A DNA stretch of 17,739 nt from Thermoproteota archaeon (GTDB lineage: Archaea > Thermoproteota > EX4484-205 > JAAOZP01), in the NCBI GenBank assembly GCA_049700215.1, contig JBNAVT010000033.1, positions 1 to 17,739 on the forward strand, given 5' to 3'. Below the pieces are notes generated by a model. It was not told the origin of the DNA. It made no database searches and saw only the letters and a list, made by a program, of their open reading frames with translations. Shown here one piece after another: positions 693 through 17,332 of the stretch (its first letter is position 1; each line of letters starts with the position of its first letter). Position numbers and translations under genes: made by a program.

Positions 693-702
693 GCGCGCGC
701 GC
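693..702. repeat. (GC)5 alternating tract, T1
   Basis: GTGT-GCGCGCGCGC-TTTATT; the minus strand reads ATA AAG CGC GCG CGC ACA. Confidence 0.95.
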
Positions 703-755
703 TTTATTATGTTTATTCCCTTGACGACTAAACCCGTAGGGGTTTCCAATTTCAT
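702..755 (-). pseudogene. Possible N-terminal stub (MKLETPTGLVVKGINIIK) of a gene downstream of pmbA, cut off at tract T1
   Basis: ATG lies 17 nt after the pmbA stop on the same strand. There are 18 protein-like codons, then RAR from the GC tract, then sequence running antisense into vapC. Confidence 0.35.
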
Positions 756-772
756 CCAGCCACTTTTATATC

Positions 773-2107
773 CTAACTGCTCACCCTCACATTTCTTATC
801 CTTATTTTCGGCGCGATCCTCCCCGCCTCGTTCCTAGTCCTCCTGCCGACAGCGTCTACAGATTGAAGAATTTGGAGAACTGTGCTTCCAACCATAGTGT
901 TTTTCACAGGGTGCTTTATTTCCCCGTTTTCAACAAGGAACCCGTGGTCAACGAGGCTTGAAACGTTTGTCGACCCCCCGACTGGGCCCAGCGAGCTGTC
1001 GTAAACATATATCCCCAGCTTCACGTCTTTGAAAAGCTCATCGTCCTCATAATCTCCTGGAGCCACCTGAAGATTAGTTAAGCTTGGCATAGGCTTCTCA
1101 GCTAAGCCAGGCCTAGCCGCATGCCCATTGTTCCCAATATTCAGAGCGTTAGCAGTGTAGGAGTCAGTAATATAGTTCGCTAAAATCCCTTTCTCAACAA
1201 GCTTAACCCTGCTGCACGGATAGCCCTCGTCGTCGAACGGTGACGAAGCCCAGCCGAAAGGATAGAGAGGATCATCCATAATGCTCAAGTGTTCGCTCGC
1301 AACCCTCTCACCCAGCCTGCCGGAGTAGTAGGAGGATTTTTGCAGGACGTAGAAAGCGTTTGCACCGTAGCCAACGATGCGCTCCAGCGTCCCCAGCGTC
1401 GTCCTCTCGTCGAGAATCAGAACGTACTCGCCGCTCCCAACCCTTCTGCCGCCAACGCTTTTAACAGCCTTCCTCGCCGCATTTTCCCCAACCTCTTCAA
1501 ACCTCAGACCCTTAATTGATCTAGTTAGAAAATAATCGTATCCCGTTCCGATTTCACCGCCACCCGCCTTTTTAAGAGCCTCAATGCCGAAGGAGAGCCT
1601 TGAAGCCTTCTGAGTCCTCTCAATCCCCAGAGAGTTCACGATGAAGCCTTCAGACACGCCTAGGCCAGCCCGGCCTGAAGCATCAAGCGTCCCGTCAACA
1701 TTCTTCAAGGACCGTACACCGTCTAAAACCTTCGACACAAGCTCCTCTGGAGACAATACCCCTATGGCCTCGTCATACAGCCCCTCAACCTCCGCAGGCC
1801 TCCCGTCCCCAGGAAGCGAGACGAACGCCTCATCCGGCGGCGTGCTCTTCGCCAAGGCTATCGCCCTCCTCACAGCCTTCTCAACCATGTCCTCATCCAG
1901 CGGCGTAGCGGTGGAAATCCCGATCGACTTACCCATGTAAACCCTTACGCCGAGGGACGAGGAAGAACCCTCGTCAACACTTTTAACGAAACACCTTTCC
2001 ACAGTCAGGCTGAGAGACCTCCCCACAAAAGCCACCACTTCAGCCTGGCTGGCGCCAAGGCTCTCGGCAAGCCTAACACCCTTTACGCATAATTCGAACG
2101 CACCCAT
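773..2107 (-). CDS. pmbA: TldE/PmbA-family protein (non-catalytic partner of the TldD metalloprotease)
   Basis: 444 aa with TldD/PmbA motifs (LGVRVY, DDP...SSPFDDEG, NNGHA, TNLQVAPG). No HExxxH motif. Its ATG directly abuts the tldD stop. Confidence 0.88.
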   Translation of the reverse strand: MGAFELCVKGVRLAESLGASQAEVVAFVGRSLSLTVERCFVKSVDEGSSSSLGVRVYMGKSIGISTATPLDEDMVEKAVRRAIALAKSTPPDEAFVSLPGDGRPAEVEGLYDEAIGVLSPEELVSKVLDGVRSLKNVDGTLDASGRAGLGVSEGFIVNSLGIERTQKASRLSFGIEALKKAGGGEIGTGYDYFLTRSIKGLRFEEVGENAARKAVKSVGGRRVGSGEYVLILDERTTLGTLERIVGYGANAFYVLQKSSYYSGRLGERVASEHLSIMDDPLYPFGWASSPFDDEGYPCSRVKLVEKGILANYITDSYTANALNIGNNGHAARPGLAEKPMPSLTNLQVAPGDYEDDELFKDVKLGIYVYDSSLGPVGGSTNVSSLVDHGFLVENGEIKHPVKNTMVGSTVLQILQSVDAVGRRTRNEAGRIAPKIRIRNVRVSS

Positions 2108-3499
2108 CTATCTTCTACCCCCGACGACTACATCCTTAACGGCGAGATGCGGCCCTCCTCCGGAAACTGGAACCATCTGCCCATCCTTTCCACAAGTTCC
2201 AGGGAAGGCGAGTTTCAAATCTTTTCCAACGCCTATCACGTTGTTCAGCACGTCCATAGTCAACCCGGACATTGACACGTTTTGAACCTTCTCACATATT
2301 TTCCCGTTTTCCACGATGTATCCCTCCTGAGCGGTGAAGTAGAACTGTCCTCTAGCGGGGTCAACGTATCCCCCGTAGGACTTCGCCAGGTATACGCCGT
2401 TCTTCACCATTTCAGCCAGCTCCTCAAGGCTGTATTCACCGTTTTCAACGAAAGTGTTGCTCATCCTAACTATGGGTTTGCTTGAAAAGTTCATCGCCCT
2501 AGCAGCCCCGTTCGGCTTAGCGTCTAGATGGGCAGCAGTCTCCAGGGAGTGGAGGTAACCGACTAGAACGCCGTTCCTAACTATTTCCCTCCTCTCAGCC
2601 TTCGTGCCCTCCGAGTCGTAAGGGTATGAGCCCCTCATCCCTAGAATAGTCGGGTCGTCGACAACGCTAATGTTTTCCTCCCCCACCTTTTTACCGATTA
2701 ACCCTGAGAGGATTGACCTGTTAGCCATAACAGCGTCAGCCTCAGCAGCATGCCCGAAAGCCTCGTGGATAAACACGCCCACCAGACTCTGATCCATCAG
2801 AATGTTCATCCTCCCGCTTGGCGGAGGGAGGGCTTTAAGGAGCTCCATCCCCCTCTCCCCCAGTTCCGAACCCTCCTTCACAGGGTCAAACTCCTCCACC
2901 AGCTCCCAACCATTGCTGCCGCCTACTGCTGTGCTCACGTTTTGAACAAGGTCGCCCTCCTTAGCAACCGCTGAGCCGGAGAGCCTTACGCTGCAAACCT
3001 CGTACCTGACCTCCGTACCGTAACTGTTCACAACATACTCCTTCTTCACACTGTCGGAGAGGCCTACTGAAGTCGTGACTATTCCATCATTATCCTTCCA
3101 TATGAACTCGTCAAACTCGAGGGCGAACCTCACTTTCTCCTCGAGTGAGACATCCCTAGGGTCGATCTTCACTTTTAAACGGACATCATCCTCATATGTT
3201 TTCTCAACCCTAATCCTTGACTTTTCAGCAATGTTACGCGAAACCGCCTTAGCTGCCCTATATGCTTTCTCTAAAGCAGCAGTTATCCCTTGAACAGAGA
3301 GGTCAGTAGTATAGTAGAAACCCCAGCCGCCGTTGAACAGGACTCTCGCAGACCCGCCGATACTCGTGCTATGGGAAACTTCTTCAACAACTCCCTTTCT
3401 AATCGAGATGAATGTAGACTCCACCTCGGTTATCCTGAAGTCTGCAAAACCCTCGCTCCCAAGCTCCAGAAACCCGAATAGTCTTCCAGTTTCACTCAA
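2108..3499 (-). CDS. tldD: TldD-family metalloprotease
   Basis: 463 aa with HEAFGH zinc motif, YDSEG, RMSNT and C-terminal CGKDGQ.VPV..GGP. Confidence 0.93.
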   Translation of the reverse strand: MSETGRLFGFLELGSEGFADFRITEVESTFISIRKGVVEEVSHSTSIGGSARVLFNGGWGFYYTTDLSVQGITAALEKAYRAAKAVSRNIAEKSRIRVEKTYEDDVRLKVKIDPRDVSLEEKVRFALEFDEFIWKDNDGIVTTSVGLSDSVKKEYVVNSYGTEVRYEVCSVRLSGSAVAKEGDLVQNVSTAVGGSNGWELVEEFDPVKEGSELGERGMELLKALPPPSGRMNILMDQSLVGVFIHEAFGHAAEADAVMANRSILSGLIGKKVGEENISVVDDPTILGMRGSYPYDSEGTKAERREIVRNGVLVGYLHSLETAAHLDAKPNGAARAMNFSSKPIVRMSNTFVENGEYSLEELAEMVKNGVYLAKSYGGYVDPARGQFYFTAQEGYIVENGKICEKVQNVSMSGLTMDVLNNVIGVGKDLKLAFPGTCGKDGQMVPVSGGGPHLAVKDVVVGGRR

Positions 3500-3519
3500 T
3501 GTGGCTTATGCGATGTTTA

Positions 3520-3582
3520 ACACTTTTATAACCTTTACCTCTTTTACCGGCTAACACAGAACACCATAAGCCTTAATATTGT
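3520..3582. promoter_or_regulatory. Divergent archaeal promoters for tldD (-) and malic enzyme (+)
   Basis: Minus-strand TTATAAAA at 3524-3531 lies about 25-32 nt from the tldD TTG. Plus-strand TTAATAT at about 3573-3579 lies upstream of ATG 3601. Confidence 0.55.
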
Positions 3583-3600
3583 AGAAGCTTTTCAACAATC

Positions 3601-4802
3601 ATGATTGAAGACAAGGCTGTTGAACTCCACAGGAAGTATGGGGGCAAGATCCAGGTTATTCCGAAGGTTCCGATAAAAAACTTTGAAGACTTCGCAACAT
3701 GGTATACTCCTGGAGTCGCCTCCCCCTGTAGGCTAATATCCTTGAACAAGGATCTTTCTCTCGAGTTAACATCGAGATGGAACCTTGTGGCAGTGGTTAG
3801 TGATGGTAGTAGGGTGCTTGGCTTAGGGAACATTGGCCCGTACGCTAGCTACCCAGTTATGGAGGGAAAGTGCCTCCTATTCAAGTTTCTAGGCGGGGTT
3901 GACGCTGTCCCGATAACACTGGATACGCAAGACGCGGGGAAGATAGTGGAGACGGTTAGGCTTATTTCACCCTCCTTCGGCGGAATAAATCTGGAGGATA
4001 TAGAAAGCCCAAAGTGTTTCAACATACTTGAAAGCCTTCAAAACTCTCTGGAGATACCTGTTTGGCACGACGATCAGCAGGGAACCTCGCTAGTCGTATT
4101 AGCAGCCTTGATAAACTCGCTTAAAATCGTTGGAAAGAAGCTGGAAGAAGCTAGGATCACGATAATCGGCTCAGGAGCCGCTGGAATGGCGACTGCGAGA
4201 CTGCTCATGGAGGCGGGGGGTGAGCGGGGGGAACATGCTGATCGTCGACAGTAGAGGGATTTTAAGCTCTACAAGGCCCGATATGGAGAAACTATCGTCG
4301 GCGAACCCTTGGAAGGCTGCTAGCGAGGAGAACCAACCCGGGAAACATGGAGGGAAATGCTGAAGACGCTGTAAAAGGCGCTGACGTCTTAATCGCGTTA
4401 TCAGTTCCGAAGCCGGGTACCGTTAAAAAAGAATGGATAGGCAAGATGTCTGAAGACCCTATAGTCTTTGCCCTGGCAAACCCTCTGCCTGAAATATGGC
4501 CGGAGGACGCTAAGGCTGGAGGCGCTAGAATCGTTGCAACAGGCAGGAGCGATTTTCCAAACCAGGTTAACAACAGCCTAGCCTTCCCATCAGTATTCAG
4601 AGGCGTGTTGACGGTGAGGGCGAGGACAATAACCAACGAGCTTTGCATCGAGGGCGCTAGGTCCCTTGCCCGCTATGCTGAAAACAGGGGGTTAAGCGAG
4701 AACAACATATTGCCGACTATGGATGACTACATGGCCTATGTTGAAGCAGCCCAAAGCATCGCGAAGAAAGCGGTTGAACTAAACTTGGCTAGGAGAAAAT
4801 AG
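3601..4802 (+). pseudogene. NAD(P)-dependent malic enzyme, two frameshifts and probable C-terminal truncation
   Basis: Motifs YTPGVA, DGSRVLGLGNIG, VMEGK, NLEDI, HDDQQGT, GSGAAG, FALANP, ATGRSDFPNQVNNSLAFP. There is a +1 shift in the G6 runs at 4215-4231, after which the frame reads NMLIVDSRGIL...NPWK. A second shift at about 4316 gives LLARRTNPGNMEG. The gene ends at a TAG that begins tract T2. Confidence 0.85.
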
Positions 4803-4811
4803 CGCGCGCGC
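4802..4811. repeat. (GC)5 alternating tract, T2
   Basis: AAA TAG CGC GCG CGC ATA AGC CTG. Confidence 0.95.
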
Positions 4812-5189
4812 ATAAGCCTGTTGAGGAAGCAAGGTATCAATCTGCTGGTGGACGTCCGCAGATTCCCTACCTCCAGAGTTAAGCATTTTCGAAAGGAGAA
4901 CCTGGAGAAATGGCTTCGCGAAGAAGGTGTTGAATACCTGTGGCTTGGAGAGGAGCTCGGAGGCTACCGTAGGGGAGGGTATGAGAAACACATGGAGACA
5001 AGCCTTTTTAAAAAAGGTGTTGAAAGACTTCTATGTTTGGCGAGAGACAGAAGAGTATGCATAATGTGTCTGGAAACGGACCCGAAATATTGCCACAGGA
5101 GGTTTATTGCAAGATATTTAAGAAAGAGGGGTGTCAGAGTGCGGCATATAGTTAAGTGTTCGAAATCCAAAGAGAATGGCGATTCTTGA
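4812..5189 (+). pseudogene. DUF488-family protein lacking its N-terminus
   Basis: ISLLRKQGINLLVDVRRFPTS...LGGYR...CIMCLETDPKYCHRRFIA matches DUF488 motifs (DVRxxP, LGG, C.E...CHR). The usual N-terminal IYTIGHS strand and a proper start or promoter are absent; tract T2 stands in their place. Confidence 0.78.
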
Positions 5190-5225
5190 TTTCTAGACGT
5201 GAAACCGGCTACTCTAGCAATCCAG

Positions 5226-6017
5226 TCACAGTTCGACCGTAAGCCCGTCATAAGCAGCCTCGACATTCATCGGTTTAAACCTATCCACTAGTTCCTCGTG
5301 CAGTAAGCCACCGTTGTGCGAAAAATGCGTGGCTACGAAAATCGTCTCGCTGCCCGCAATCCTCCTTCTCAACATTTCTTCCCTAACCCGTAGAACGCCG
5401 TCTACACCCATGTGATACCTGATTTCAGGCAGAGCGCCGTTCCTACAGTCTAGAACCACCAGATCCAGCCTGAAACCCTTGAGAAACCGCCACGTGTCTT
5501 CCGGAAACCATCCGGAGTCATGCCCGTGCAGCATTGTCTTTCCCCGGTCTGACACTAGGTAGATTAAGCACTGCTAGCGCGCGCGCTATCCTCCAGCCCT
5601 GAACTCTTTAAAAGGCCCGACAATATGGGCCTCCACCACGCTCTTCAACCTCCCATTAGTCAAAGAGTCCAACTCCTGAATCCTATCGTAGACAGCCTTG
5701 TTCCCGTAGACGTGGAGAACACGCTCGTTTAAAAGCTTCGCGAAGGGTTTTGACCTCATGTAGAGTTCTTCAAAATAGAAATGATCCTTGTGGGTGACAA
5801 GCAGGTTCTCAACAGAGGCCAGCTCAATCCCATGCTTAAGAACATGGTGGGGCGTGTCGGGTGGGAAGTCTATCTTCAAATCAGCGTTTACCAGTATCGA
5901 CGACCTTGTCCTAACGTTTTTACCTCCAGCAACTCTGGCTCTCCTACAGTTTGCACACTGGCAAAACACTGCCGGCCATCCCTCGGCCGCGGCTGTACCC
6001 AGGAACATAACCCTCAT
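5226..6017 (-). pseudogene. PhnP-like metallo-beta-lactamase-fold hydrolase, interrupted
   Basis: FLGTAAAEG.P..FCQCANC, RTRSS, HDSG and ATHFSH motifs. The two ORFs (5586-6017 and 5226-5555) are in the same frame, separated by TAG-CGC-GCG-CGC-TAG. The HxHxDH motif is shortened to THKDH. Confidence 0.85.
5575..5588. repeat. Perfect 14-bp palindrome TAGCGCGCGCGCTA containing (GC)5, T3
   Basis: Read directly from the sequence; lies inside the PhnP-like gene. Confidence 0.95.
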
Positions 6018-6032
6018 GTTTCATCGCTCCAA

Positions 6033-6068
6033 TTGACGATAACCATCTATTTATAGGCTTACCGTCAA
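6033..6068 (-). promoter_or_regulatory. TATA box of the PhnP-like gene flanked by an inverted repeat
   Basis: Minus-strand TATAAATA at 6048-6055. Arms TTGACGATAA (6033-6042) and TTACCGTCAA (6059-6068) pair at 9 of 10 positions. Confidence 0.5.
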
Positions 6069-6145
6069 ACATGCTATTGTAGACCACGAAAATCCCTAGG
6101 GGAAACACCGTGGATGAGAAGATTACGAGAGGGCTGAACAGGGGT

Positions 6146-7585
6146 TTAAGCCGTTTCCGAGATTTTTTCGTGAGACAGAACTTTCAACTCGTAAGCCCAC
6201 TTATCGTAGTACAGGTTACCCCCTCTCCACTCAACTTCCCCGCGTTGATTATCCACAGTATCCGACCTGAAGTGTTCTTTAGGAGGAGTAAGGTTGACAG
6301 ACAGACCTGTGTTAACTACAAGCCTATAGTGATCGATGTTTCCGAAGTAGAACCGGTGGTACTTCTCAACCTTCTTCCAATGGCCGCCGAAAGACGGGTC
6401 CACGTATAGCCAGCCGTAGGGCTCAACGTAGAACTGAGCCCAGTCATGGGGGCTCGGTCTAATAGGGTTGAGATACCATCCTGACTGCCATCTGGCTGGA
6501 ACCCCGCTTATCCTGCACAGGGTTATGAAGAGCAGGGCTTGGACACCGCAGTCCCCTCTAAGGTTTCTAGCAGCATAATCACTGATACACTCGATCGTCG
6601 AGTACTCCGGCACCAGCGCGTAGCTAACGTTTTCCGTTATCCACCTGTATATGCGCCAAGCCTTAAGATAAGGGTTGGGCTCGCCGGAGACAAGCTCCTC
6701 CGCAAGCCTCCTGAGGTAGGGCGTGAAAACTATATGGGGTGGAAACTCGGAGGTGAACCTCCTGTAGGACTCGTCCTCAACATACTGGCTTACCCTGTCA
6801 GGATCTATCTCGACGTAAGCAGCGTTCACCACATATTCGTATTCAACACTGAATTCAAGCGTCTCACCCTTAACGGACTCCCCCTCGAAGTATACTGTCC
6901 TCTGGGAAGCATCATCCGGAGCGAGAACATGCTTCTCAGGCATGGTTGATACGAGTCTAACGAATGGTTGCAACTGGTTTCTTTGAGGAAAAGGAATCCA
7001 GGCTCTTACGGTCTCGCCATCCGGAACAGCGTCAGGCTTAACCCTTAACAACATCAACACTCTGTTTCTAACCGGCTCAACACGCACGGTGCCTGAGGCC
7101 AACCCTTTCTGCATCACGGTGTCTAAGTGTTCACACAGCATGCCGGTGATACCGGTGTCTTCCCTCGTCCTGAGCCTGCTTCTGACCTCCGTCCTCTCCC
7201 TCAAGAAATTAGGCAGAAAATTCCTGAAGACCCTTGCCTCCCCCTCTATCTCCATATGCTCTACGAGGCCTTTCTCAAACCACTCGTTGAACTCGCTCAG
7301 AGTTAAATCCGGAATCTGCTCCCTAAGCAATTTGAAAGCTTCCTCCCTATTAAGACAATAGTCCCACTCAACCCTCTTAATCCTCTCCAACTCCCATTCC
7401 AACCTGGATTGAAGAACCCTTGGGAGGCTCCTCCCCTCAGCTAGGAAACGCTTTATCGCGCCTACAGCCTCTTGAAACAAGCCTTTTTCCTCAAGGCGGC
7501 GAACCCCGTCGGGTAGACCGGCCACTAGGAAACCCGTATGCAGGTCACCAGCATCCGGCAAGCCTGTCCAATCATCAGCAAACAC
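6146..7585 (-). CDS. Transglutaminase-like (Cys-His-Asp) domain protein
   Basis: 479 aa with GDCGVQALLFITLCRISGVPAR (catalytic Cys) and HDWAQFYVEPYGWLYVDPS (His, Asp). No signal peptide evident. Confidence 0.88.
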   Translation of the reverse strand: MFADDWTGLPDAGDLHTGFLVAGLPDGVRRLEEKGLFQEAVGAIKRFLAEGRSLPRVLQSRLEWELERIKRVEWDYCLNREEAFKLLREQIPDLTLSEFNEWFEKGLVEHMEIEGEARVFRNFLPNFLRERTEVRSRLRTREDTGITGMLCEHLDTVMQKGLASGTVRVEPVRNRVLMLLRVKPDAVPDGETVRAWIPFPQRNQLQPFVRLVSTMPEKHVLAPDDASQRTVYFEGESVKGETLEFSVEYEYVVNAAYVEIDPDRVSQYVEDESYRRFTSEFPPHIVFTPYLRRLAEELVSGEPNPYLKAWRIYRWITENVSYALVPEYSTIECISDYAARNLRGDCGVQALLFITLCRISGVPARWQSGWYLNPIRPSPHDWAQFYVEPYGWLYVDPSFGGHWKKVEKYHRFYFGNIDHYRLVVNTGLSVNLTPPKEHFRSDTVDNQRGEVEWRGGNLYYDKWAYELKVLSHEKISETA

Positions 7586-7594
7586 CTATTTAGG

Positions 7595-7640
7595 CATTAA
7601 TTCGGCAAGCGTAAATTCTTATTTACAGCCAGGATTAATG
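7595..7640. promoter_or_regulatory. Near-symmetric bidirectional promoter region
   Basis: Nested inverted repeats CATTAAT/ATTAATG and GTAAAT-TCTT-ATTTAC, centred in a 65-bp divergent intergenic gap. Confidence 0.45.
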
Positions 7641-7650
7641 AAGGGAAAAC

Positions 7651-8490
7651 ATGTGTAGGAATGGAGAGACACTCTTTCCCTGCCCCCAGGAGAAAATACC
7701 CCACTACACAGCCTACCGCGTCGACGAGCCCATTCGGGTCGACGGTTTTCTAGACGAGGCTTGCTGGCAAAAGGCTCCCCGCTCCCCCCGGTTTGTCGAC
7801 CTTGTGAGCGGGCGGCCGACGCTATACGATACGTATGCGGCAGTACTCTGGGATGATGAAAACCTGTACGTGGGCTTCTGGGTTGAGGAACCCCTAGTAG
7901 TCGCCACTCTTACGGAGCGGGACTCCCCGATCTACGAGGATAATGACGTGGAGTTCTTCATCGCCGGCAGAGATGCCTACTATGAGTTTGAGATAAACGC
8001 ACTCGGAACCCTCTACGAGGTTCTCTTCATATGGGAGGATGCTTACGAGAAATCCGGCTACAGTAGGCTCCCCGAGTTTCAAAAAGGCCTTCCGGGGGTA
8101 AGGCTGTTTCCAGGAGTGGGTTTCAGAAACCATCCCCGGGGGATGCGCATAGGATTCTGGAACTGGGATTTCCCCGGGCTTAAGAGCGGTGTTCACGTCG
8201 ACGGTACTCTCAACAATAATCAGGACCGGGATAGGGGCTGGACTGTCGAGTTAGCCTTCCCCTGGAAGGGGATGAGAGTGCTTGCTATGCCCGACAACCG
8301 GGCGCTGCCTCCTAAGGATGGAGAAACCTGGCGCATGAACTTCTTCCGCTTCAACCAGTATAGGGAGGCGCCTCCAGCACAGGACTCTGGCGGCTGGGCC
8401 TGGAGTCCTCACTACGTATGGGACTCGCATGTGCCCGAGTGCTACCCTTTCATACATTTCTCGTCTAAGCCGGTGGATGAGGCCGGGTAG
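7651..8490 (+). CDS. Stand-alone carbohydrate-binding family 9-like (DOMON-like) protein
   Basis: 279 aa with IRVDGFLDEACW, LWDDENLYVGF, DNDVEFFI, YYEFEINALG, GWTVELAFPW and WRMNFFR, typical of CBM9-like domains. No signal peptide. Confidence 0.82.
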   Translation: MCRNGETLFPCPQEKIPHYTAYRVDEPIRVDGFLDEACWQKAPRSPRFVDLVSGRPTLYDTYAAVLWDDENLYVGFWVEEPLVVATLTERDSPIYEDNDVEFFIAGRDAYYEFEINALGTLYEVLFIWEDAYEKSGYSRLPEFQKGLPGVRLFPGVGFRNHPRGMRIGFWNWDFPGLKSGVHVDGTLNNNQDRDRGWTVELAFPWKGMRVLAMPDNRALPPKDGETWRMNFFRFNQYREAPPAQDSGGWAWSPHYVWDSHVPECYPFIHFSSKPVDEAG

Positions 8491-8498
8491 CGCGCGCG
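8490..8498. repeat. 9-bp alternating GC tract, T4
   Basis: GGG TAG CGC GCG CGA C; the tract begins at the G of the CBM9-like gene's stop codon. Confidence 0.9.
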
Positions 8499-8604
8499 AC
8501 GGTGAACCTTGCTCCACAGGCTTTATAACGGTCTTAAAAGCGCACGCGAAGAGAATAAAGACTTTTAACCAAGCGTGCCGATATAAATTGCCTGAAAGGA
8601 GTTT

Positions 8605-8859
8605 ATGCTTGAGGAGCCCAACTCCACTCGACTGTTCCCGTTAACCCTATTGTTTTCAATAATTCTTGCAGCCGCGACTGTTTTCACGCTTAGAATAATC
8701 CGTATCCCGGAGCGTCTCCAGCTTGAACTCCCATACCGGGATGTTTTAACAGGCAGGGCCTTCTGCCCGAAATGCTTCTCAACCAGTTTAGAGCCCACGG
8801 GTCATCACGCTTTCAGATGTAAAAACTGTGGCTTTGTATTCGGCTTTGGAAACCCTTGA
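8605..8859 (+). CDS. Small single-pass membrane protein with C-terminal Zn-ribbon
   Basis: 84 aa with hydrophobic LFPLTLLFSIILAAATVFTL followed by CPKC...CKNCG. TATAAAT lies upstream at about 8582-8588. Confidence 0.6.
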   Translation: MLEEPNSTRLFPLTLLFSIILAAATVFTLRIIRIPERLQLELPYRDVLTGRAFCPKCFSTSLEPTGHHAFRCKNCGFVFGFGNP

Positions 8860-8916
8860 ACACCGGCTTTTCAGAGAAAAGATAGGCTTTTTAAATTCTC
8901 AGAACAAACTAAAAAC

Positions 8917-10089
8917 ATGCTCCCTATCCCTAAAGGAAGGCGTGTTGAACCCTGTTTGAAAAACCCGCGTAGCCGTTCACCCGGGGCCACGAGTGGAACC
9001 GGCGAACTCCTGTCTAATTGTCTCCTGCTAATAATCTTGGCTTCGCTCTACACCAGTGTAGCGGGTTCTCCAGCTGTTTCACACCATACGGCTGAAGAGG
9101 ATTTCTCAAGATTCTACACGTACGACAGGTCTATTCCTCTCAACGCTTCGGAAGAATTAATCAGGGATGAGGGCGTCTGCAAAATATACAAGGTTTACTT
9201 CAATTCCGTGGACAACGAGAGGGTTCCGGCCATGATTTCAATACCCTCTGGCCCAGGTAAACACCCTTGCGTCGTTTTTCTCCACGGCTACGGTGGTTCG
9301 AAGGAAGACATTTTGTCTTTCGCGAGCCTGGTTGCAGCCGAGGGCTATGCGGTCATCGCCATAGACGCTGAGTTCCACGGTGAACGGAGGGAGGAGGGGA
9401 AAGAATTATACTCCCCGAACCTGGAGGAGTCTGTGAAAGGCATAATTCAAACAATTATCGACCTTAGGAGGGCTGTGGACTATCTTGAAACCAGGGGTGA
9501 GATTGACGTTGAGAGGATTGGGTACGTGGGCGGCAGCATGGGGGGAATCCTGGGAGCCATATTCATAGGCGTCGAGCCCAGGGTTAAGGCTGCTGCACTC
9601 CTGGTAGCGGGTGGAAACATGAGCCTGATGATAATGAGGAGCCAGCATCCAGCAATACCGGCGATCAGGAAATACTTGGAGGAGCAGGGCATTACTTACA
9701 GGGAGCTTCAAGAGAGCCTGAACCCTGTTGACCCCCTCAACTTTATAGGGAAGTTCGCGCCCAGGCCCGTGGCCTTCCATTTTGGGAAAAACGACAGGAT
9801 TGTCCCGGCTGAAGCCGGTGAGCAGCTTTACAAGGCTGCTGGAGAACCCAAGCAAGTATACTGGTATGACTCTGGCCACAACCTTCCTTTAGAGCTGGTC
9901 GTCGCAAGGATCCTGGACTTTATGGATCGAGAGTTGAAGGGAAGAGTTTTCACGTCGCATGAGGCAAGGTTCTGGGCGGTCAGATACGGTTTGCCGATGC
10001 TGGTAGCCGGGCTTGCCGCGAGTATTCTAGCTTACGCTATTGCGAGGGCTAAACACTCCAAGCGGTCTGAACCTACTGCCGTATCCTAG
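8917..10089 (+). CDS. Alpha/beta-hydrolase (esterase-like), probably exported and C-terminally membrane-anchored
   Basis: HGYGG oxyanion motif, GGSMGG nucleophile elbow, GKNDRIV (Asp) and SGH (His). N-terminal hydrophobic stretch, and C-terminal TM helix followed by a basic tail. TTTTTAAA lies upstream. The start codon is uncertain. Confidence 0.85.
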   Translation: MLPIPKGRRVEPCLKNPRSRSPGATSGTGELLSNCLLLIILASLYTSVAGSPAVSHHTAEEDFSRFYTYDRSIPLNASEELIRDEGVCKIYKVYFNSVDNERVPAMISIPSGPGKHPCVVFLHGYGGSKEDILSFASLVAAEGYAVIAIDAEFHGERREEGKELYSPNLEESVKGIIQTIIDLRRAVDYLETRGEIDVERIGYVGGSMGGILGAIFIGVEPRVKAAALLVAGGNMSLMIMRSQHPAIPAIRKYLEEQGITYRELQESLNPVDPLNFIGKFAPRPVAFHFGKNDRIVPAEAGEQLYKAAGEPKQVYWYDSGHNLPLELVVARILDFMDRELKGRVFTSHEARFWAVRYGLPMLVAGLAASILAYAIARAKHSKRSEPTAVS

Positions 10090-10141
10090 GCCGCGTTGCC
10101 ACTGAAAAATGGTTAAAAATGTTCTCAACAATTTCTCCACC

Positions 10142-10273
10142 ATGGAGGAACAGAAGAGTTTAAGGGCTAAGGCTCTTGAAGAAGGAGGTTTTAGCGCGCG
10201 CGCGCGCGCGCGTCTACAGGCATGCTACTCAGGAAAACAGAAGGAGAGCATTCCTAGAAGTAGACTATGTTAG
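10142..10273 (+). pseudogene. Probable gene remnant (MEEQKSLRAKALEEGGF...) interrupted by tract T5
   Basis: GAAAAA..TTAAAAA promoter-like sequence about 25-30 nt upstream of ATG 10142. There are 17 ordinary codons, then SARARAR from the tract, then a short tail. Confidence 0.35.
10194..10212. repeat. 19-bp alternating GC tract, T5
   Basis: TTTA-GCGCGCGCGCGCGCGCGCG-TCT. Confidence 0.95.
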
Positions 10274-10286
10274 AGTCCATTAAGCT

Positions 10287-11252
10287 TTAAACGACGAGCT
10301 CCCCGCTCTCCAATAGGTGCCCTATACACTCCCGGTAGATGTCTTCCGTAGTGTAGCGCGGCTGGTATCCGAGCAGCCGTTGGGCCTTCTCTATGCTTAC
10401 ACAGGGAGAGTGAATAACGTGGTCCCTCGTGATTGCGAACGCCTCCTCGCCTAAAACCTCCACCATTTTCTGCAGGGGAACAAACCTCAGATTCGGTTTG
10501 TTTCCGAAAAGAGAAGCCACAAACTCGCAGCAGGATAGGAGGGTCATAGCATATGGCGCTGCAACGCTGAACGATTCTCCCAAGGCTGCTTTACGGTTCA
10601 GGATCGCCAGCTCGAAAACCTGCGCTACATCGTCAGCATGCACGTGGTGAAGCATTGCTAAACCAGTATCCGGAAGGTAAACAACGTCCCCATGGGCTAA
10701 GCTCCTGTACACGCCGACTCCGTTTCTAGTTCCCTGAGGGTCTATCGGGAGCCACTCCCTTCCTGAAATATGGCCAGGATGAATCACCGTCGCCGGGAAC
10801 CCCTCCCTACTGTATTTCTCAAGGAGGTCGGCCTCAATCCTAGCCTTAAGCACACCGTACTCTGTAACCGGTTTCCTAGGGTAATTCTCCCGGTAGGGCA
10901 CTCGAGCACTCGGCCCATAGGCCCATATTGTGCCGCAGTGGATGAAGTGGCTTACGCTCTCCTTCAGGCTCTCCACAATCATCCTGTTCTGCTCAGGAGT
11001 GTAGCAGATAAGGTCTATTACAACGTCAGCGTCAACCGCAGCCATGCGTTTCCCCCATGAGCCGTTCTTCTCCTCCGTAATTCTGTCCGCGACAACCCAT
11101 TTAACCTGGCTCCACAATGCTTCAGCACCAGCCCCACCGTAACGCGGCCTAGGGTTTCTCGCCAGAACCTGAACATCATACCCGCGTAACACTAGGCGTG
11201 GCACAAGGTAGCTGCCGATGTGCCCGGTTCCACCGATTACGAGAATCTTCAT
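10287..11252 (-). CDS. NAD-dependent epimerase/dehydratase family protein (extended/atypical SDR)
   Basis: 321 aa with GGTGHIG Rossmann motif, YGVLK (YxxxK), HVHADDVA and KAQRLLGYQP. Confidence 0.88.
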   Translation of the reverse strand: MKILVIGGTGHIGSYLVPRLVLRGYDVQVLARNPRPRYGGAGAEALWSQVKWVVADRITEEKNGSWGKRMAAVDADVVIDLICYTPEQNRMIVESLKESVSHFIHCGTIWAYGPSARVPYRENYPRKPVTEYGVLKARIEADLLEKYSREGFPATVIHPGHISGREWLPIDPQGTRNGVGVYRSLAHGDVVYLPDTGLAMLHHVHADDVAQVFELAILNRKAALGESFSVAAPYAMTLLSCCEFVASLFGNKPNLRFVPLQKMVEVLGEEAFAITRDHVIHSPCVSIEKAQRLLGYQPRYTTEDIYRECIGHLLESGELVV

Positions 11253-11274
11253 CTGAGAAGAAAGGGTTTAAGCC

Positions 11275-11390
11275 TGGAGTTAAAAAGCTTTGCGAATCTA
11301 CTCCGCGCTTGTGGGAAACGATTTTGAAAAATGCATCAGCCCTGTGTGTTGAGCAAAATGCTGTTACACGTATTAAGATTTATATTACCA
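11275..11390. promoter_or_regulatory. Divergent promoters for the epimerase (-) and glpK operon (+)
   Basis: Minus-strand TTTTTAA at about 11280-11286, about 30 nt from ATG 11252. Plus-strand TTTATAT at 11379-11385, about 30 nt from ATG 11414. Confidence 0.6.
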
Positions 11391-11413
11391 TCCCAGGGTT
11401 TGCAAAGTGTTTA

Positions 11414-12991
11414 ATGAGCGAAAGAATCGTAATGAGCATTGACCAGGGCACCACCGGCTCCAGAGTCTCGCTTTACAAGCATGATGGAACACCCTACCCT
11501 AACGGCTGGTGTTACGTTGAGCATTCTCAATCCTACCCTAAACCAGGCTGGGTTGAGCACGATCCTCTCGAAATATGGATGAACGTTAAGCATTGCATCA
11601 GAAACGTGCTGGATAAGACGGGTGTTAAACCCGGGGATATAGTTGCGATAGGAGTGACCAATCAGCGTGAAACAGTCGTAGCCTGGAGCCCTAAAACAGG
11701 AACACCGGTTTCAAACGCTATCGTTTGGCAGGACCGGAGGACTGCTAAGCTGGTCGACAGTCTCCGGGAGAACTATTTTAACGAAATCGTTGAGAAAACC
11801 GGTTTGATTCCAGACAGTTATTTCTCAAGCACTAAAATATGGTGGATGCTTGAGAACACTCATGGTTTACGCGAGAAGGCTTTGAAAGGAGAAGTCGTCT
11901 TCGGAACGATAGACACATGGATAATATGGAACCTGACGAAAGGCTCTCGAGATGTTCAAACCCCTGGTTTCAACGGTGCGTTCGTAACCGATTACAGCAA
12001 TGCTTCGAGAACAATGCTCTTCAACATACGTAGGCTCGCTTGGGACGAGGACCTTGCGGAAATACAGGGAAAAATACCTGTTGAAGCCCTAGCGCTGCCA
12101 AGGCCGAGCAGTGATGAAAACATTTACGGTTGGACTGGGCCGGAGGTCTCAAGCATTTTAGGAGGAGCCAGTAAGCCGGTGACGGGTGATGCTGGAGACC
12201 AGCAGGCTGCTCTATTAGGTCAAGCAGGTTTTGAACCTCATGATGCGAAATGCACCTACGGCACGGGAAACTTCATACTCATGAATACGGGGGAGAACAT
12301 AGTCCGCTCCAAGACAGGGCTACTGGCTACAGTGCTATACAGTATTAAGCCTGGTGAAGCATTCTACGCTCTCGAGGGAAGCGTTTTCATCACGGGTGCA
12401 GCCATCCAGTGGCTGCGTGACGGTTTGAAGATGATAGAGGTTTCCGCGGAGGTGAATCCTCTTGCCGAGGCTGCTGAAGACACTGGGGGCATGTATTTCG
12501 TCCCAGCGTTCACAGGGCTTGGAGCACCCTACTGGGATCCCTATGCGAGAGGAATGGTAATAGGTTTAACCAGGGGGACGAGCAGGAAGCATATTGCCAG
12601 AGCGGTTTTAGAGTCCATTGCATACTTGACCCGTGACGTGGCTGAAGCAATGGGCAACGATACTGGCAGGAGAGTGGAGAAGCTTAAGGCAGACGGGGGC
12701 GCATCAAGGAGCGACTTCCTGCTTCAATTCCAAGCGGACATTCTCGACGCCACAGTTGTCAGGCCGCTTGTGCTGGAGACGACTAGCCTGGGGGCAGCCT
12801 ACCTAGCTGGCCTCGCCGTAGGCTTCTGGAGGAGCATAGGCGAGGTTAAAGAAAACTGGAGGATGGAGAGGGAGTTTAAACCCAGGATGAGCCCGGATAC
12901 TAGGGAGAAACTATACGGGGGTTGGAGGGCGGCTGTAAAGAGATCGCTAGGATGGGCTAGGGAAGTGCCTTGGGCCTACGGCTACGACTAG
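11414..12991 (+). CDS. glpK: Glycerol kinase
   Basis: SIDQGTTGSR, GWVEHDP, TNQRET, IVWQDRRT, TDYSNASRTML, GDQQAAL, KCTYGTG, YALEGS and AFTGLGAPYWD. The true start is ATG 11414 (525 aa), not 11198. Confidence 0.96.
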   Translation: MSERIVMSIDQGTTGSRVSLYKHDGTPYPNGWCYVEHSQSYPKPGWVEHDPLEIWMNVKHCIRNVLDKTGVKPGDIVAIGVTNQRETVVAWSPKTGTPVSNAIVWQDRRTAKLVDSLRENYFNEIVEKTGLIPDSYFSSTKIWWMLENTHGLREKALKGEVVFGTIDTWIIWNLTKGSRDVQTPGFNGAFVTDYSNASRTMLFNIRRLAWDEDLAEIQGKIPVEALALPRPSSDENIYGWTGPEVSSILGGASKPVTGDAGDQQAALLGQAGFEPHDAKCTYGTGNFILMNTGENIVRSKTGLLATVLYSIKPGEAFYALEGSVFITGAAIQWLRDGLKMIEVSAEVNPLAEAAEDTGGMYFVPAFTGLGAPYWDPYARGMVIGLTRGTSRKHIARAVLESIAYLTRDVAEAMGNDTGRRVEKLKADGGASRSDFLLQFQADILDATVVRPLVLETTSLGAAYLAGLAVGFWRSIGEVKENWRMEREFKPRMSPDTREKLYGGWRAAVKRSLGWAREVPWAYGYD

Positions 12992-13022: not shown

Positions 13023-14534
13023 ATGGCTGGCGGAACACGCGTCGCAATAATAGGCGCAGGCATCATAGGAGCCTCCATAGCCAGGGTTTTAAGCATGTTT
13101 GAAAACCTGCAGGTGTATGTTTTAGAGGAAAACTATGATGTCGGCGGAACCGTTAGCAGGGCTAACAGCTCAGTAATACACCCGGGTCACGAGGAGGATC
13201 CTGAAAACCAGCCTTTGCGGGCGAGGCTCTGCGTCGAGGGGAATGCTTTATGGAGGAAATGGTGCAGGGAGCTCGAGATCCCTGTTAAATGGGTCGGCGA
13301 GCTCATGCTGTTCGAGAGAAGCGAGGAGGAGAAGGAGGCTGAGAAGTATGTTGAGTGGGCCCGTAGAAACAACGTGGCGGGCGTAAGGATTGTCGGGAGG
13401 GAGGAACTGTTTGAAATGGAAAGCTCAGTAAGCAGGAGTGTTGAAGGCGGTGTTTACGCTCCCACGGCTGGCCTAATCTCCCCTTTCGAAGCCGTTGTAG
13501 CTCTAATCGAGAACGCTGTGGACAACGGTGTTAAGATTCTCACCGAGACGCGTGCCAAGAGCATCATCTCTAGAAACAATGTTGTCGCAGGCGTCGACAC
13601 AAATCGCGGGTTCATCGAGGCTGACATCGTGATCAACGCAGCCGGGTTGAACGCTGACGAAGTGTCTCACACCGCCGGGGTTGAACCATGGTTCAGAATA
13701 AGGCCGAGAAAAGGCGAGTACATAGTTTTCGACAGGGATGCTGAGCCTAAGCCGAGCCTCATATTGCACACGATGCCCACGCCCGTCACTAAAGGCGTTT
13801 ACGCTTTGACCACCGTGCATGGAAACCTGATGATAGGGCCGACTGCCGAAGACCTTCCTTACGAGTCTAAGGGGGACGCGTCCACAAGCCTGAACGGCCT
13901 AGACCACCTGGTTAAAGAGGCGGGTAGAATGCTCTGCAGAACACCACCGCGCTCGAAAATCATAAAGTTTTTCGCAGGGTTGAGACCCGAGCCCCCCGAC
14001 GGTAAATGGTTGGTGAAAACCTACTCTCAGCCCTACGGATTCGTCAACGTCGCAGGCATCAGGTCCCCGGGCTTAACGGCTGCACCCGCAATAGCCAATT
14101 ATGTTTCAAGCCTCCTTATGGAGGAATACGGGTTAAGGCTGGTTGAGAAAACAAGATGGAAACCATTAAGGAGGCGAATAACACCCGTCGACGAGATGGA
14201 TTACAACACCCTGGACAAGCATATCTCGGAGAACCCTGATTACGGCGAGATCGTGTGTTTCTGCAACAATGTTTCAAAAGCAGAGGTTTCAGAAGCCGTT
14301 GAAAGAATGCGGGTGATCGGCGTGAAGACCATCACCTTCGACGGCGTAAAGCTCAGGACGACAGCGGGCTTCGGTAAGTGTCAGGCTTCAAGATGCAGGA
14401 TACGGATAGCCCTCTTAATATCTGAGGCAACAGGGGCACCTCTTCACAGCGTCATCATGAAGAAGGCGAGCATCGGCGTCGGAGGAGTCAAGACGCTTTG
14501 GACCGAGAGCAAGGAGAGTGTGGAGAATGATTGA
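13023..14534 (+). CDS. glpA: FAD-dependent glycerol-3-phosphate dehydrogenase, GlpA-like, with C-terminal BFD-like [2Fe-2S] domain
   Basis: GAGIIG FAD motif, SRANS, INAAG, PRKGEY, FAGLRP, GIRSPGLTAAPAIA, and CFC...GKCQASRC cluster motif. Follows glpK. Confidence 0.85.
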   Translation: MAGGTRVAIIGAGIIGASIARVLSMFENLQVYVLEENYDVGGTVSRANSSVIHPGHEEDPENQPLRARLCVEGNALWRKWCRELEIPVKWVGELMLFERSEEEKEAEKYVEWARRNNVAGVRIVGREELFEMESSVSRSVEGGVYAPTAGLISPFEAVVALIENAVDNGVKILTETRAKSIISRNNVVAGVDTNRGFIEADIVINAAGLNADEVSHTAGVEPWFRIRPRKGEYIVFDRDAEPKPSLILHTMPTPVTKGVYALTTVHGNLMIGPTAEDLPYESKGDASTSLNGLDHLVKEAGRMLCRTPPRSKIIKFFAGLRPEPPDGKWLVKTYSQPYGFVNVAGIRSPGLTAAPAIANYVSSLLMEEYGLRLVEKTRWKPLRRRITPVDEMDYNTLDKHISENPDYGEIVCFCNNVSKAEVSEAVERMRVIGVKTITFDGVKLRTTAGFGKCQASRCRIRIALLISEATGAPLHSVIMKKASIGVGGVKTLWTESKESVEND

Positions 14535-15777
14535 ACAAGAGTATGACGTTATCGTCATAGGCGGCGGGCCAGCAGGGTTATCCGCAGCGACCAGAGCTGT
14601 TGAAAACGGTTTGAAAACCCTGCTCCTTGAAAACAGGGAGATGCTCGGCGGCATCCCGCTTCAATGCGTTCACACCGGCTTCGGAATACATTGCTTCAAG
14701 GAAGACTTGACCGGGGGCGAGTTCATCACAAGGCTTATAGACAGGGCGGTTAAAAACGGTGTTGAAAGCATGGTTAAAACACATGTTCTAAGGGTTCAAG
14801 TGGATTCAGCCTACGAGAAGACGGTTTACGCCGCCAGCCCTAAAGGCCTTTTGAAAACACGGGCTAAAGCCATGGTTTACGCGGTCGGCGCACGGGAGAG
14901 ACACCAGTATGAAGCCGGCTTAACAGGCGACAGACCTGACGGGGTTTACACGGCTGGCGAAGCCCAGGCTCTGATGGATATTTACGGTGTTCTACCGGGC
15001 AGGAGAATAGTTATCCTCGGATCCGGCGACGTGGGGCTCATAATGGCGAGAAGGTTTGCCCTGGAGAAGGCGGAGGTAAAGGCTGTGGTGGAGGTCCTAC
15101 CCTACCCCGGCGGCTTGACGCGGAACATCGTGCAGTGTCTAAACGACTTCAACATTCCGCTTTACCTGGGCCACATGGTTCTCGAGGTCAAGGGGAGCGG
15201 GAGGGTTGAGAAAGTGGTTGTCGCAAGGGTTGGCGGAGACATGAAGCCGGTTGAGGGCTCTGAATTCGAGCTTGAGTGTGACACCGTTATTGTTTCCGCG
15301 GGCTTAAGGCCGGATGTTGATATTCTTGAAAAAATAGGGGTTGAAACAGACCCCGCTACCGGGGGACCGGTTGTAAACGAGTATTACGAAACCAGCGTGC
15401 CACTCGTCTTCGCAGCGGGTAACGCTCTCGTCATAAACGATCTCGTGGACTACGATGTGGAGCAGGGTGAGGCTGCAGCAACATTCGCCTCCAAGCTTTT
15501 AAAAGACTATGCTACTCGAAGGTTGAAATGGAGGCGGGTTGAAAGAGGGAGGAACATAAGGCTAGTCGTACCCCAGCTCGTAAGCGGGGCTAGGGATGTC
15601 GTTTTCTACGGCAGGGTTCAGCACCCTGAGGACAATGTGCGTGTTAAGATCCGCGAGACGGGGTTTGAAAAAAGGCTTTTCAGGGTTAAGCCGGCGGAGA
15701 TGATCAGGATCAGGGTTAACGCTGAAGAACTGGCGAAGGTTCAGGGTGAGAAGCTTACCTTCGAGGTGGTTGGATGA
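14527..15777 (+). CDS. FAD/NAD(P)-dependent pyridine-nucleotide-disulphide oxidoreductase (partner of the GlpA-like dehydrogenase)
   Basis: GGGPAG, LGGIPLQCVHTGFG, GARER, GSGDVGLIMARR and VFAAGN. ATG 14527 overlaps the end of the upstream gene. Confidence 0.88.
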   Translation: MIEQEYDVIVIGGGPAGLSAATRAVENGLKTLLLENREMLGGIPLQCVHTGFGIHCFKEDLTGGEFITRLIDRAVKNGVESMVKTHVLRVQVDSAYEKTVYAASPKGLLKTRAKAMVYAVGARERHQYEAGLTGDRPDGVYTAGEAQALMDIYGVLPGRRIVILGSGDVGLIMARRFALEKAEVKAVVEVLPYPGGLTRNIVQCLNDFNIPLYLGHMVLEVKGSGRVEKVVVARVGGDMKPVEGSEFELECDTVIVSAGLRPDVDILEKIGVETDPATGGPVVNEYYETSVPLVFAAGNALVINDLVDYDVEQGEAAATFASKLLKDYATRRLKWRRVERGRNIRLVVPQLVSGARDVVFYGRVQHPEDNVRVKIRETGFEKRLFRVKPAEMIRIRVNAEELAKVQGEKLTFEVVG

Positions 15778-16219: not shown

Positions 16220-17332
16220 ATGAATCTAGACGAGGCTTTAAGCAGGATTGTTGAAGAAGCCGGGAAACTGGTTGGCAAATCCATGGTTAAAGCCTCAGAC
16301 GGGACGATTCTTTTCAGGCCGGACGGGGGTGGAAACTACAACGCGCTCTGGACAAGGGACTTCTGCTACATGCTTGAAGGCCTTCCAAACCGTTTTAAGC
16401 GTGAAGACGCTGCCAAAGCCTATTTCTTCATAGTTAACCGTCAAAGGGGGGATGGGGCTATTCCTGACAGGGTTGGAATAGATGGAGAGCCCTACTACAA
16501 CGTTTTCGGCTCAAAGCCTCCAACCGACAACCCACAGTTCGCGGTTAAAATAGCATGGGAAATATGGCGTGCCTACGGTGATGCTTCACCCTTCATCCTA
16601 ACCGCCGGCAGGCTGGAGAAAGCCTTAGGCTCGCTTCCTTTAAGCAGTGAGACTGGCTTAATCTGGATCGACCCCAGTAGCCCGCACTCGCCCTACGGCT
16701 TTACAGACTGCGTGGCTAAAACCGGCGAGGAACTCTTCTCCTCGCTACTCCTGTACGAGGCTCATGTTAAAATGGCTGAGCTATACCGGGCGACAGGAAG
16801 GCTTGAGGAGGCAGGGGTACACGAGGCTAAGGCGGCTAGAGTAAAGAGCTCGCTGGAAACACTGTGGTCCGGCGAAGGATATTTCTTCGCAGCCTCCGGA
16901 GACTGTAGGCAGCCGGACGTATGGGGGTCGGCTTACTCCGTTTGGCTGAATGCGGTTGACGGTCAGAAAGGCCTAGAGATTTCCAGATGGCTCTCAAACA
17001 GGTTCGACAGGATTGTTAAATGGGGCCAGGTTAGGCACCTGCCTGAGCCTTTCTCCTGGGAGAAAACTCTTACTGAAGTCAAGCCTGGGACATATCAAAA
17101 CGGCGCCTACTGGGGGACAGCCGCAGGATGGGTGACCTACGCAGTGTCACTCACCAACCGTCAACTGGCTGAGCGAATACTGATAGACCTTGTTGAATTC
17201 TGCGAGACCGAGGGGAAAGCGTGGGAATGCGTCAACCTGGACTACAGGAAGTGCCCAGACTACGTGGCTACTTTAGCCTGCCCGTCAGCCCTGGTTGAAA
17301 GGCTGAAGAAGAGTGGGCGTAGACACGGGTGA
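16220..17332 (+). CDS. Six-hairpin (alpha/alpha)6 glycosidase-like protein
   Basis: YNALWTRDF, PYGFTD, DVWGSAY and YQNGAYWG motifs typical of uncharacterised six-hairpin glycosidases. TTAATA at 16190-16195 favours ATG 16220 over GTG 16181. Confidence 0.65.
   Translation: MNLDEALSRIVEEAGKLVGKSMVKASDGTILFRPDGGGNYNALWTRDFCYMLEGLPNRFKREDAAKAYFFIVNRQRGDGAIPDRVGIDGEPYYNVFGSKPPTDNPQFAVKIAWEIWRAYGDASPFILTAGRLEKALGSLPLSSETGLIWIDPSSPHSPYGFTDCVAKTGEELFSSLLLYEAHVKMAELYRATGRLEEAGVHEAKAARVKSSLETLWSGEGYFFAASGDCRQPDVWGSAYSVWLNAVDGQKGLEISRWLSNRFDRIVKWGQVRHLPEPFSWEKTLTEVKPGTYQNGAYWGTAAGWVTYAVSLTNRQLAERILIDLVEFCETEGKAWECVNLDYRKCPDYVATLACPSALVERLKKSGRRHG

Follow-up and report, generated by a model that had tools for sequence, protein, structure and literature searches.

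Fillers at end-joining junctions are known from several sources, namely the N-nucleotides added by terminal transferase, untemplated addition by LigD-type archaeo-eukaryotic primase (AEP) polymerases and the insertions made by polymerase theta. To our knowledge, these fillers are random, merely biased toward G and C or copied from nearby DNA, and never consist of a single repeat; break repair in the uncultured archaea of the TACK group is, as far as we know, almost uncharted, with archaeal end joining documented in few species. Thermophilic polymerases can carry out ab initio synthesis of palindromic repeats. As described in the cited excerpts, the mobile GC clusters of yeast mitochondria are palindromes rich in G and C that have AG or TAG terminal repeats and promote deletions (PMC8811140), MUSE1 of Podospora is an ultra-short element of 11 bp (PMC7218506), and DRT3 makes poly(GT/AC) without a nucleic-acid template (PMC13314766, PMC13213688). 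The present analysis concerns contig JBNAVT010000033.1 from a Thermoproteota archaeon (17,739 bp, G+C content 51.8%, zero N; the whole of this stretch is hereafter the window), which contains five perfect tracts of alternating G and C, denoted T1 to T5. Three of these, T2, T3 and T5, stand in place of DNA that is present in related genomes, and similar tracts recur at deletion joints in the relatives themselves.

Alternating G/C tracts and deletion joints in the window

A maximal-run count finds exactly five alternating G/C runs of six or more bases in the window, at the positions given in the initial annotation:

693–702, no strand assigned: T1, 10 bp, (GC)5, in the spacer between a convergent PIN-domain open reading frame (ORF) and pmbA
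4802–4811, no strand assigned: T2, 10 bp, (GC)5 with an extra A, at the joint of the malic enzyme and DUF488 genes
5577–5586, no strand assigned: T3, 10 bp, (GC)5 with an extra T (gene strand), inside an MBL-fold hydrolase gene
8490–8498, no strand assigned: T4, 9 bp, (GC)4G, overlapping the TAG stop of a CBM9-like ORF
10194–10212, no strand assigned: T5, 19 bp, with the preceding A a filler of 20 nt, A + (GC)9G, inside a GH16/ConA-like gene

The run lengths are bimodal: there are 52 runs of four bases and 8 of five, none of six to eight, and then the five tracts of 9, 10, 10, 10 and 19. A first-order Markov model of the window predicts 0.27 runs of at least 8 bases, 0.06 of at least 9 and 0.01 of at least 10, compared to 5, 5 and 4 observed; the earlier rough expectation of 0.14 for runs of at least 9 was of the right order of magnitude. 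A bacterial control (47 loci, 737,226 bp), obtained in the same search as the related loci, shows no excess, with 56 runs of at least 8 observed against 63 expected. For dinucleotides other than CG, no run of at least 8 is present anywhere in the window. Imperfect copies, counted as clusters within two mismatches of the 10-mer, number 6 in the window (5.6 expected) and 6 in the related locus L005 (4.0 expected). One string of this kind, AGCGCACGCGA at 8539–8549, lies 40 bp downstream of T4 and differs from an alternating run by two mismatches, and the bases of the related locus L001 at this place are unrelated; either an older tract that has decayed or chance could explain it.

For comparison, species-representative genomes were queried with the transglutaminase-like protein encoded in the window, which yielded 78 loci. 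The best of these show 72–79% protein identity and come from metagenome-assembled genomes (MAGs) labelled Brockarchaeota, Thermoproteota, Nitrososphaerota or Thaumarchaeota, and synteny places the window among MAGs labelled Brockarchaeota/Thermoproteota, in place of Thermococcus, which the archaeal TldD and glp genes had initially suggested. Six loci (L001–L005 and L032) are syntenic with the window across most of its length, with 72–83% nucleotide identity; L001 and L032 are separate records that are 96% identical to each other at the nucleotide level. A whole-region MAFFT alignment proved noisy for the purpose of indel detection owing to a non-homologous GH123 segment in L005 and the truncation of L002, so the events were checked singly. 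The genes disrupted at T2, T3 and T5 are the following:

3601–4801, + strand: malic-enzyme pseudogene in two frames, C-terminus cut off at T2
4812–5189, + strand: DUF488 gene, start removed at T2, profile match beginning at position 10 of 121
5226–6017, − strand: MBL-fold hydrolase pseudogene in two pieces, T3 mid-gene
10142–10193, + strand: GH16-like remnant, first 17 codons with the ATG at 10142, upstream of T5
10213–10283, + strand: GH16-like remnant, approximately the last 23 codons and the stop, downstream of T5

Alignment to relatives confirms the earlier claim that coding sequence is missing at T2 and T3. T2 stands in place of about 205 bp that are present in all five relatives aligned and comprise the last ~45 codons of the malic enzyme gene, the spacer and the first ~20 codons of the DUF488 gene; the left breakpoint follows the ancestral AAAATA, and the right one precedes the ancestral TAAGCC. 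Compared to three relatives, a G run of the malic enzyme gene is also longer by one G (near 4215, within 4206–4230), and the gene is two bases short near 4317 (within 4306–4330). With these +1 and −2 frameshifts, the gene is a pseudogene independently of T2.

T3 takes the place of 38 bp in the MBL-fold hydrolase gene, as judged by L003 and L002, the two relatives in which this part of the gene is intact; both have 38 bp where the window has 11. The net change of −27 bp is in frame, which explains the in-frame TAG-CGCGCGCGC-TAG at this place. Recoding of TAG was considered as a reading of this arrangement and set aside, given the loss of 38 bp of conserved coding sequence. The same gene lacks 6 bp of the HxHxDH metal-binding motif near 5789 in comparison with L003.

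T5 replaces about 640 bp (620 gap columns and 20 columns under the filler) of a gene for a 253-amino-acid GH16/ConA-like protein, which is complete in all four relatives compared, including the intact, Pfam-supported gene at 6672–7433 on the minus strand of L001. The initial annotation placed T5 after a short gene start, and the tract does follow the first 17 codons, but the amount of DNA missing is far above a short stretch.

Thus, alignment with sister genomes, suggested at the outset as a way to size the deletions and to test for templating, gives about 205, 38 and about 640 bp for T2, T3 and T5, respectively, with G/C bases that are not derived from the flanks; the filler at these three joints is not templated nearby. 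In the aligned relatives, there is no G/C run at either ancestral breakpoint of T2, T3 or T5, and the repeat, therefore, arises together with the deletion. Two explanations that depend on a pre-existing site were rejected on this ground. A restriction cut followed by fill-in would yield exactly (GC)5 from a filled GCGCGC site, but no GCGCGC site is present at the ancestral breakpoints. These breakpoints are also free of tracts, which speaks against recombination between two tracts that existed beforehand, of the kind exemplified by the cyanobacterial HIP1 repeats.

T1 and T4 are of a different nature. T1 was originally described as following a short gene start, which is incorrect: it lies between the convergent stops of two genes:

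219–638: PIN-domain ORF
773–2107: pmbA

In L032, the only alignable one of the three relatives supplied for this comparison, the locus contains 10 other bases, TCCACCACCG, between the same conserved flanks (GT and TTTAT). The spacer that includes T4 is 45 nt long in the window and 48 nt in L001 between the same anchors, and is divergent in sequence. None of the five tracts has the contiguous flanks in relatives that a plain insertion would show, and none is conserved at the orthologous site in any relative.

Related loci and flanking bases

The relatives contain scars of their own. In L005, there are three (GC)5 tracts within 21 kb: one (11667–11676) at the joint of a deletion of about 0.6 kb within the MBL-fold gene, one (9187–9196) at a deletion of about 0.5 kb that took the end of the CBM9-like gene together with the zinc-ribbon gene, and the third in a spacer of an inserted segment that has no comparator. 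In L003, a (GC)4 at 14437–14444 marks the point where tldD stops after about 50 codons; the sequence resumes about 260 bp past pmbA, so that about 2.8 kb are lost. L001 and L032 share a deletion of about 0.54 kb in the MBL-fold gene, with GCGCGC-T and CGCGC-T, respectively, at the joint, which is a single inherited event present in two separate records. The MBL-fold gene was hit independently in at least three lineages, with separate deletions in L005, L001/L032 and L004. The interpretation of the tracts in the initial annotation, as filler left where DNA was removed, stands for T2, T3 and T5, where it rests on the alignments and is reinforced by four junctions in relatives; it is not supported for T1 and T4, which are same-length replacements.

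L011, a more distant locus from Bathyarchaeota, contains six runs of at least 8 bases and 12 clusters within two mismatches of the 10-mer, compared to 2.25 expected; 10 of the 12 are located in a gene-poor stretch with a split rubrerythrin gene. This gene (4917–5399) is present in two frames, one with the rubrerythrin domain and the other with the rubredoxin-like domain, and sits between a G/C 8-mer (4871–4878) and a tract with one mismatch (5512–5523). A Pfam search of 37 short frames around the L011 tracts identifies only the split rubrerythrin and a DNA-binding domain.

The bases next to the tracts are not random either. TA directly precedes four of the five tracts of the window on the plus strand (TAGCGC), and T1 reads AAGCGC on the minus strand, in agreement with the AG ends noted originally. 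The bias was assessed for 19 tracts of at least 8 bases, that is, 38 half-sites, from the window, L001, L003, L004, L005, L007 and L011. A adjoins the tract in 23 of the 38 half-sites and TA in 13, against a TA background of 5.6% (P = 7e-8). For the bacterial tracts, A adjoins in 22 of 112 half-sites, and TA is outside the eight commonest flank dinucleotides, which means at most 5 occurrences. The TA to the left is ancestral at T2 and T3, and both breakpoints of T2 touch an ancestral TA; on the right of T3 and T5, there is no ancestral TA. A non-ancestral A or T is present beside the tract on the right of T3 and T2, on the right in L001 and on the left in L003. Any mechanism proposed for the tracts must account for the preference for TA. 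A further recurrence is TCTA(C/T), which follows the L011 tracts at 3949, 9110 and 9545 as well as T5 (at 10213), with the TCTAC ancestral in the window; this may reflect a breakpoint preference or a coincidence.

Possible origins of the tracts

The explanation that we tentatively prefer is that the tracts are real, heritable scars of a double-strand break or gap at which about 10 bp to about 3 kb were lost and which was closed with alternating G/C filler. The length of the filler is most often 10 bp, and it often comes after a non-ancestral A. The data themselves show a recurrent, heritable association of a strict (GC)n filler with lost or replaced DNA and with flanks biased to A or TA. From this, we infer a process in which a putative tailing enzyme would add to each 3' end a tail, A(GC)n, without copying the flank. 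Because (GC)n is self-complementary, two such tails could pair, and the joint would then be filled and ligated to yield ...A(GC)nT.... Nearest-neighbor calculations give a melting temperature of about 61–68 °C at 1 μM for the (GC)5 self-duplex and of about 49–55 °C for 8 bp, which suggests that a 10-bp all-G/C duplex would be about the shortest joint that holds near 60–70 °C and would suit an organism from a hot spring, the presumed habitat in this case. Full pairing of two 10-nt tails would produce 10 bp, and joining of the tails end to end would produce about 20 bp, as in T5 (20 nt). Such scars would survive only where selection permits, namely within spacers and already dispensable genes.

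Several observations weigh against repair with such filler. T1 and T4 are intergenic replacements with unchanged net length. Deletions free of tracts also occur, namely that of the whole MBL-fold gene in L004 and one of 191 bp in L001/L032 at a GGAT microhomology. Three further junctions are ambiguous and were set aside: a 1.3-kb deletion in L032 with GCACGC, a 44-bp deletion in L004 beside TGCGCGCTAA, which aligns with the ancestral TGGCGGCAAG, and a deletion of about 1.4 kb in L004 with a string that has two mismatches. The 8-mers of L010 and L027 belong to ordinary coding sequence that differs from the orthologues by substitutions only, so that short runs alone prove nothing; the 9-mer of L001 is also located inside a coding match. 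Every tract of the window and L005 is perfect, and decayed copies are no commoner than expected, which implies recent events or regeneration; an artefact would look alike. Simple tailing would not predict the preference for TA, for which a site-specific nuclease or transposase is the better match. Profile annotation bears out the earlier statement that no candidate enzyme is encoded in the window, in that no candidate polymerase, primase, ligase, Ku or reverse transcriptase is found within these 17.7 kb. Finally, all the junctions were read from assembled metagenome records.

A broader proposal, which we regard as possible but doubtful, is that Brockarchaeota-like archaea, and perhaps Bathyarchaeia, possess a dedicated, heat-adapted form of end joining that adds A(GC)n tails of defined length without a template, such that any two ends can pair, and that this would be the main source of deletions and a mutational signature by which repair events could be dated and counted. 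If true, a sequence-specific filler would be a new signature of repair that is readable directly from genomes; it would give a handle on the responsible enzyme through phylogenetic profiling and would show the course of gene loss, as in the case of the repeatedly hit MBL-fold gene. An enzyme that writes a defined alternating repeat on DNA ends at high temperature would also be a useful tool.

The main rival to filler repair is the footprint of a mobile element or nuclease that targets TA, which we consider unlikely overall. Under this scenario, an element with (GC)n ends inserts at TA, and imprecise excision or abortive transposition leaves the ends behind and deletes DNA on one side; alternatively, a nuclease cuts beside TA. 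The flanks argue for a footprint: TA is present on at least one side of 11 of the 19 tracts (P = 7e-8) and on both sides of T3 and of the L005 tract at 16456, and TA is ancestral on the left of T2 and T3 and at both T2 breakpoints. A fixed staggered cut could account for the modal 10 bp, and the GC clusters of yeast mitochondria, mobile and deletion-promoting as far as the cited excerpt describes them, provide a precedent (PMC8811140). However, there is no plain insertion among the five tracts of the window, and the right flanks of T3 and T5 are away from ancestral TA. Furthermore, a search of the window, of about 400 kb of archaeal loci and of L011 3800–9900 revealed neither an element bounded by tracts nor an inverted repeat extending past a tract, and no transposase adjoins any tract examined. 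If the tracts are footprints of a tiny TA-targeting element, they would represent a novel mobile element of archaea, paralleled only in the mitochondria of fungi.

Less probable still is a self-perpetuating fragile site, at which (GC)n would form Z-DNA or a cruciform and be cut again, with each round of repair widening the deletion and restoring a perfect tract. Such a cycle would explain why the tracts of the window and L005 are perfect, with no decayed tail, and why the deletions vary in size between about 0 and 2.8 kb; repeats that form Z-DNA are described, in the part of the account cited here, as provoking breaks, deletions and rearrangements (10.64898/2025.12.30.697008). The first origin of the tract remains unexplained under this scheme, given that the relatives are tract-free at the T2, T3 and T5 breakpoints. 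Fragility would, accordingly, need either filler repair or the footprint mechanism as well, and could be added to either.

An artefact of assembly, gap-filling or library preparation, with the tracts being placeholders or chimeric joins absent from the cells, was among the causes initially proposed and, judging from the records compared, appears unlikely, more so than any of the preceding explanations. It draws on the uniformity of the tracts, 6 of the 8 in the window and L005 being exactly 10 bp long and all 8 perfect, and on the metagenomic origin of all the records. Nevertheless, similar junctions are found in records of differing naming and origin (L001, L003, L005 and L032), and the joint common to L001 and L032 persists in flanks that have diverged. 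A fixed placeholder would not come in lengths of 8, 9, 11 and 19, and gaps in the related records are written as runs of N, of which the window has none. T2 and T3 are located in genes with independent lesions (the two frameshifts and the 6-bp loss in HxHxDH, respectively), and an artefact has no reason to favor TA flanks or genes that are already broken. A de Bruijn assembler can place a 10-bp tract between unique flanks only if the reads contain all of the k-mers that bridge tract and flanks.

Ordinary microsatellites, or a functional palindrome such as a regulatory site or terminator, lying near lesions by coincidence are hardly credible: the L011 and L007 tracts are indeed in spacers near gene ends, and T1 scores as a hairpin with a T-run under a bacterial promoter/terminator model that is uninformative here, but the gap at 6–8 bp in the bimodal lengths does not fit continuous growth from short seeds, no relative has an orthologous tract and the flanking DNA is lost or replaced (all in accord with the earlier view that these are not simple microsatellites), T2, T3 and T5 destroy genes, and Rfam gives no match.

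Other genes of the region and comparison with known systems

Around the tracts, the window also encodes tldD, for which the best model is the archaeal TldD, the transglutaminase-like and CBM9-like proteins, a zinc-ribbon protein, an alpha/beta hydrolase, an epimerase, and the products of glpK and the glycerol-3-phosphate oxidoreductase genes; gene positions confirm the initial observation that no tract lies within the tldD-pmbA or glp genes. Rfam and tRNA scans of the window produced no match, and neither did a comparison with E. coli. A small ORF at 1–222, open at the window edge, is overlapped at its end by the PIN-domain ORF, and the pair is kept in L032; toxin-antitoxin pairs typically have this layout. 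The listed glpK frame (11198–12991) has a GTG start inside the overlap with the epimerase gene. Because the match to the family profile does not begin until residue 74, translation probably starts near 11417.

Two rearrangements of other kinds are apparent in the relatives. L001 contains an apparent tandem duplication of about 535 bp (1748–2286) that comprises the end of the glycerol-3-phosphate oxidoreductase gene and the start of the next gene; the joint is without a G/C tract, and either a real duplication or a misassembly is possible. In L005, a 2.2-kb segment between tldD and pmbA is bounded by a perfect 41-bp direct repeat (15049–15089 and 17247–17287), which is the 3' end of tldD, and holds two helix-turn-helix ORFs (401 and 205 amino acids). 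The segment resembles an integrated element or the remnant of one; shorter versions are present in L032 and L001, and none in the window.

Literature searches uncovered no published account of (GC)n at archaeal deletion junctions and nothing specific on end-joining fillers in archaea, and the consulted passages of the description of Brockarchaeota are silent on the subject. None of the known systems compared fits the tracts fully. Deletions at (CG)n through Z-DNA or cruciforms resemble them in that alternating CG is linked to breaks, deletions and rearrangements; in those cases, as far as the cited portion of the report goes, the repeat is there beforehand (10.64898/2025.12.30.697008), whereas the breakpoints of the relatives studied here are repeat-free. 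The yeast mitochondrial GC clusters and MUSE1, as presented in the excerpts cited above, are likewise short GC-rich palindromes that occur in spacers and sometimes in genes, have AG or TAG ends and are hotspots of deletion and recombination; (GC)5 is its own reverse complement. However, the GC clusters are structured hairpins of 30–60 bp (11 bp for MUSE1) that insert with target duplication in AT-rich organelle DNA, whereas the tracts are pure (GC)n in an archaeal genome with 52% G+C and always replace DNA, with no plain insertion.

DRT3, as described in the sources cited above, is a bacterial anti-phage system that makes a different dinucleotide repeat, with products not known to enter the chromosome, and no gene of this type was seen in the window; the likeness lies in the ability of a protein to make a strictly alternating repeat, as the filler requires. 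The fillers of end joining share with the tracts short, non-ancestral DNA exactly at a deletion joint, a variable loss of sequence and a mutagenic outcome. The tracts differ from them in that the filler is always a strict alternation of G and C, most often 10 bp long, and TA often lies beside it.

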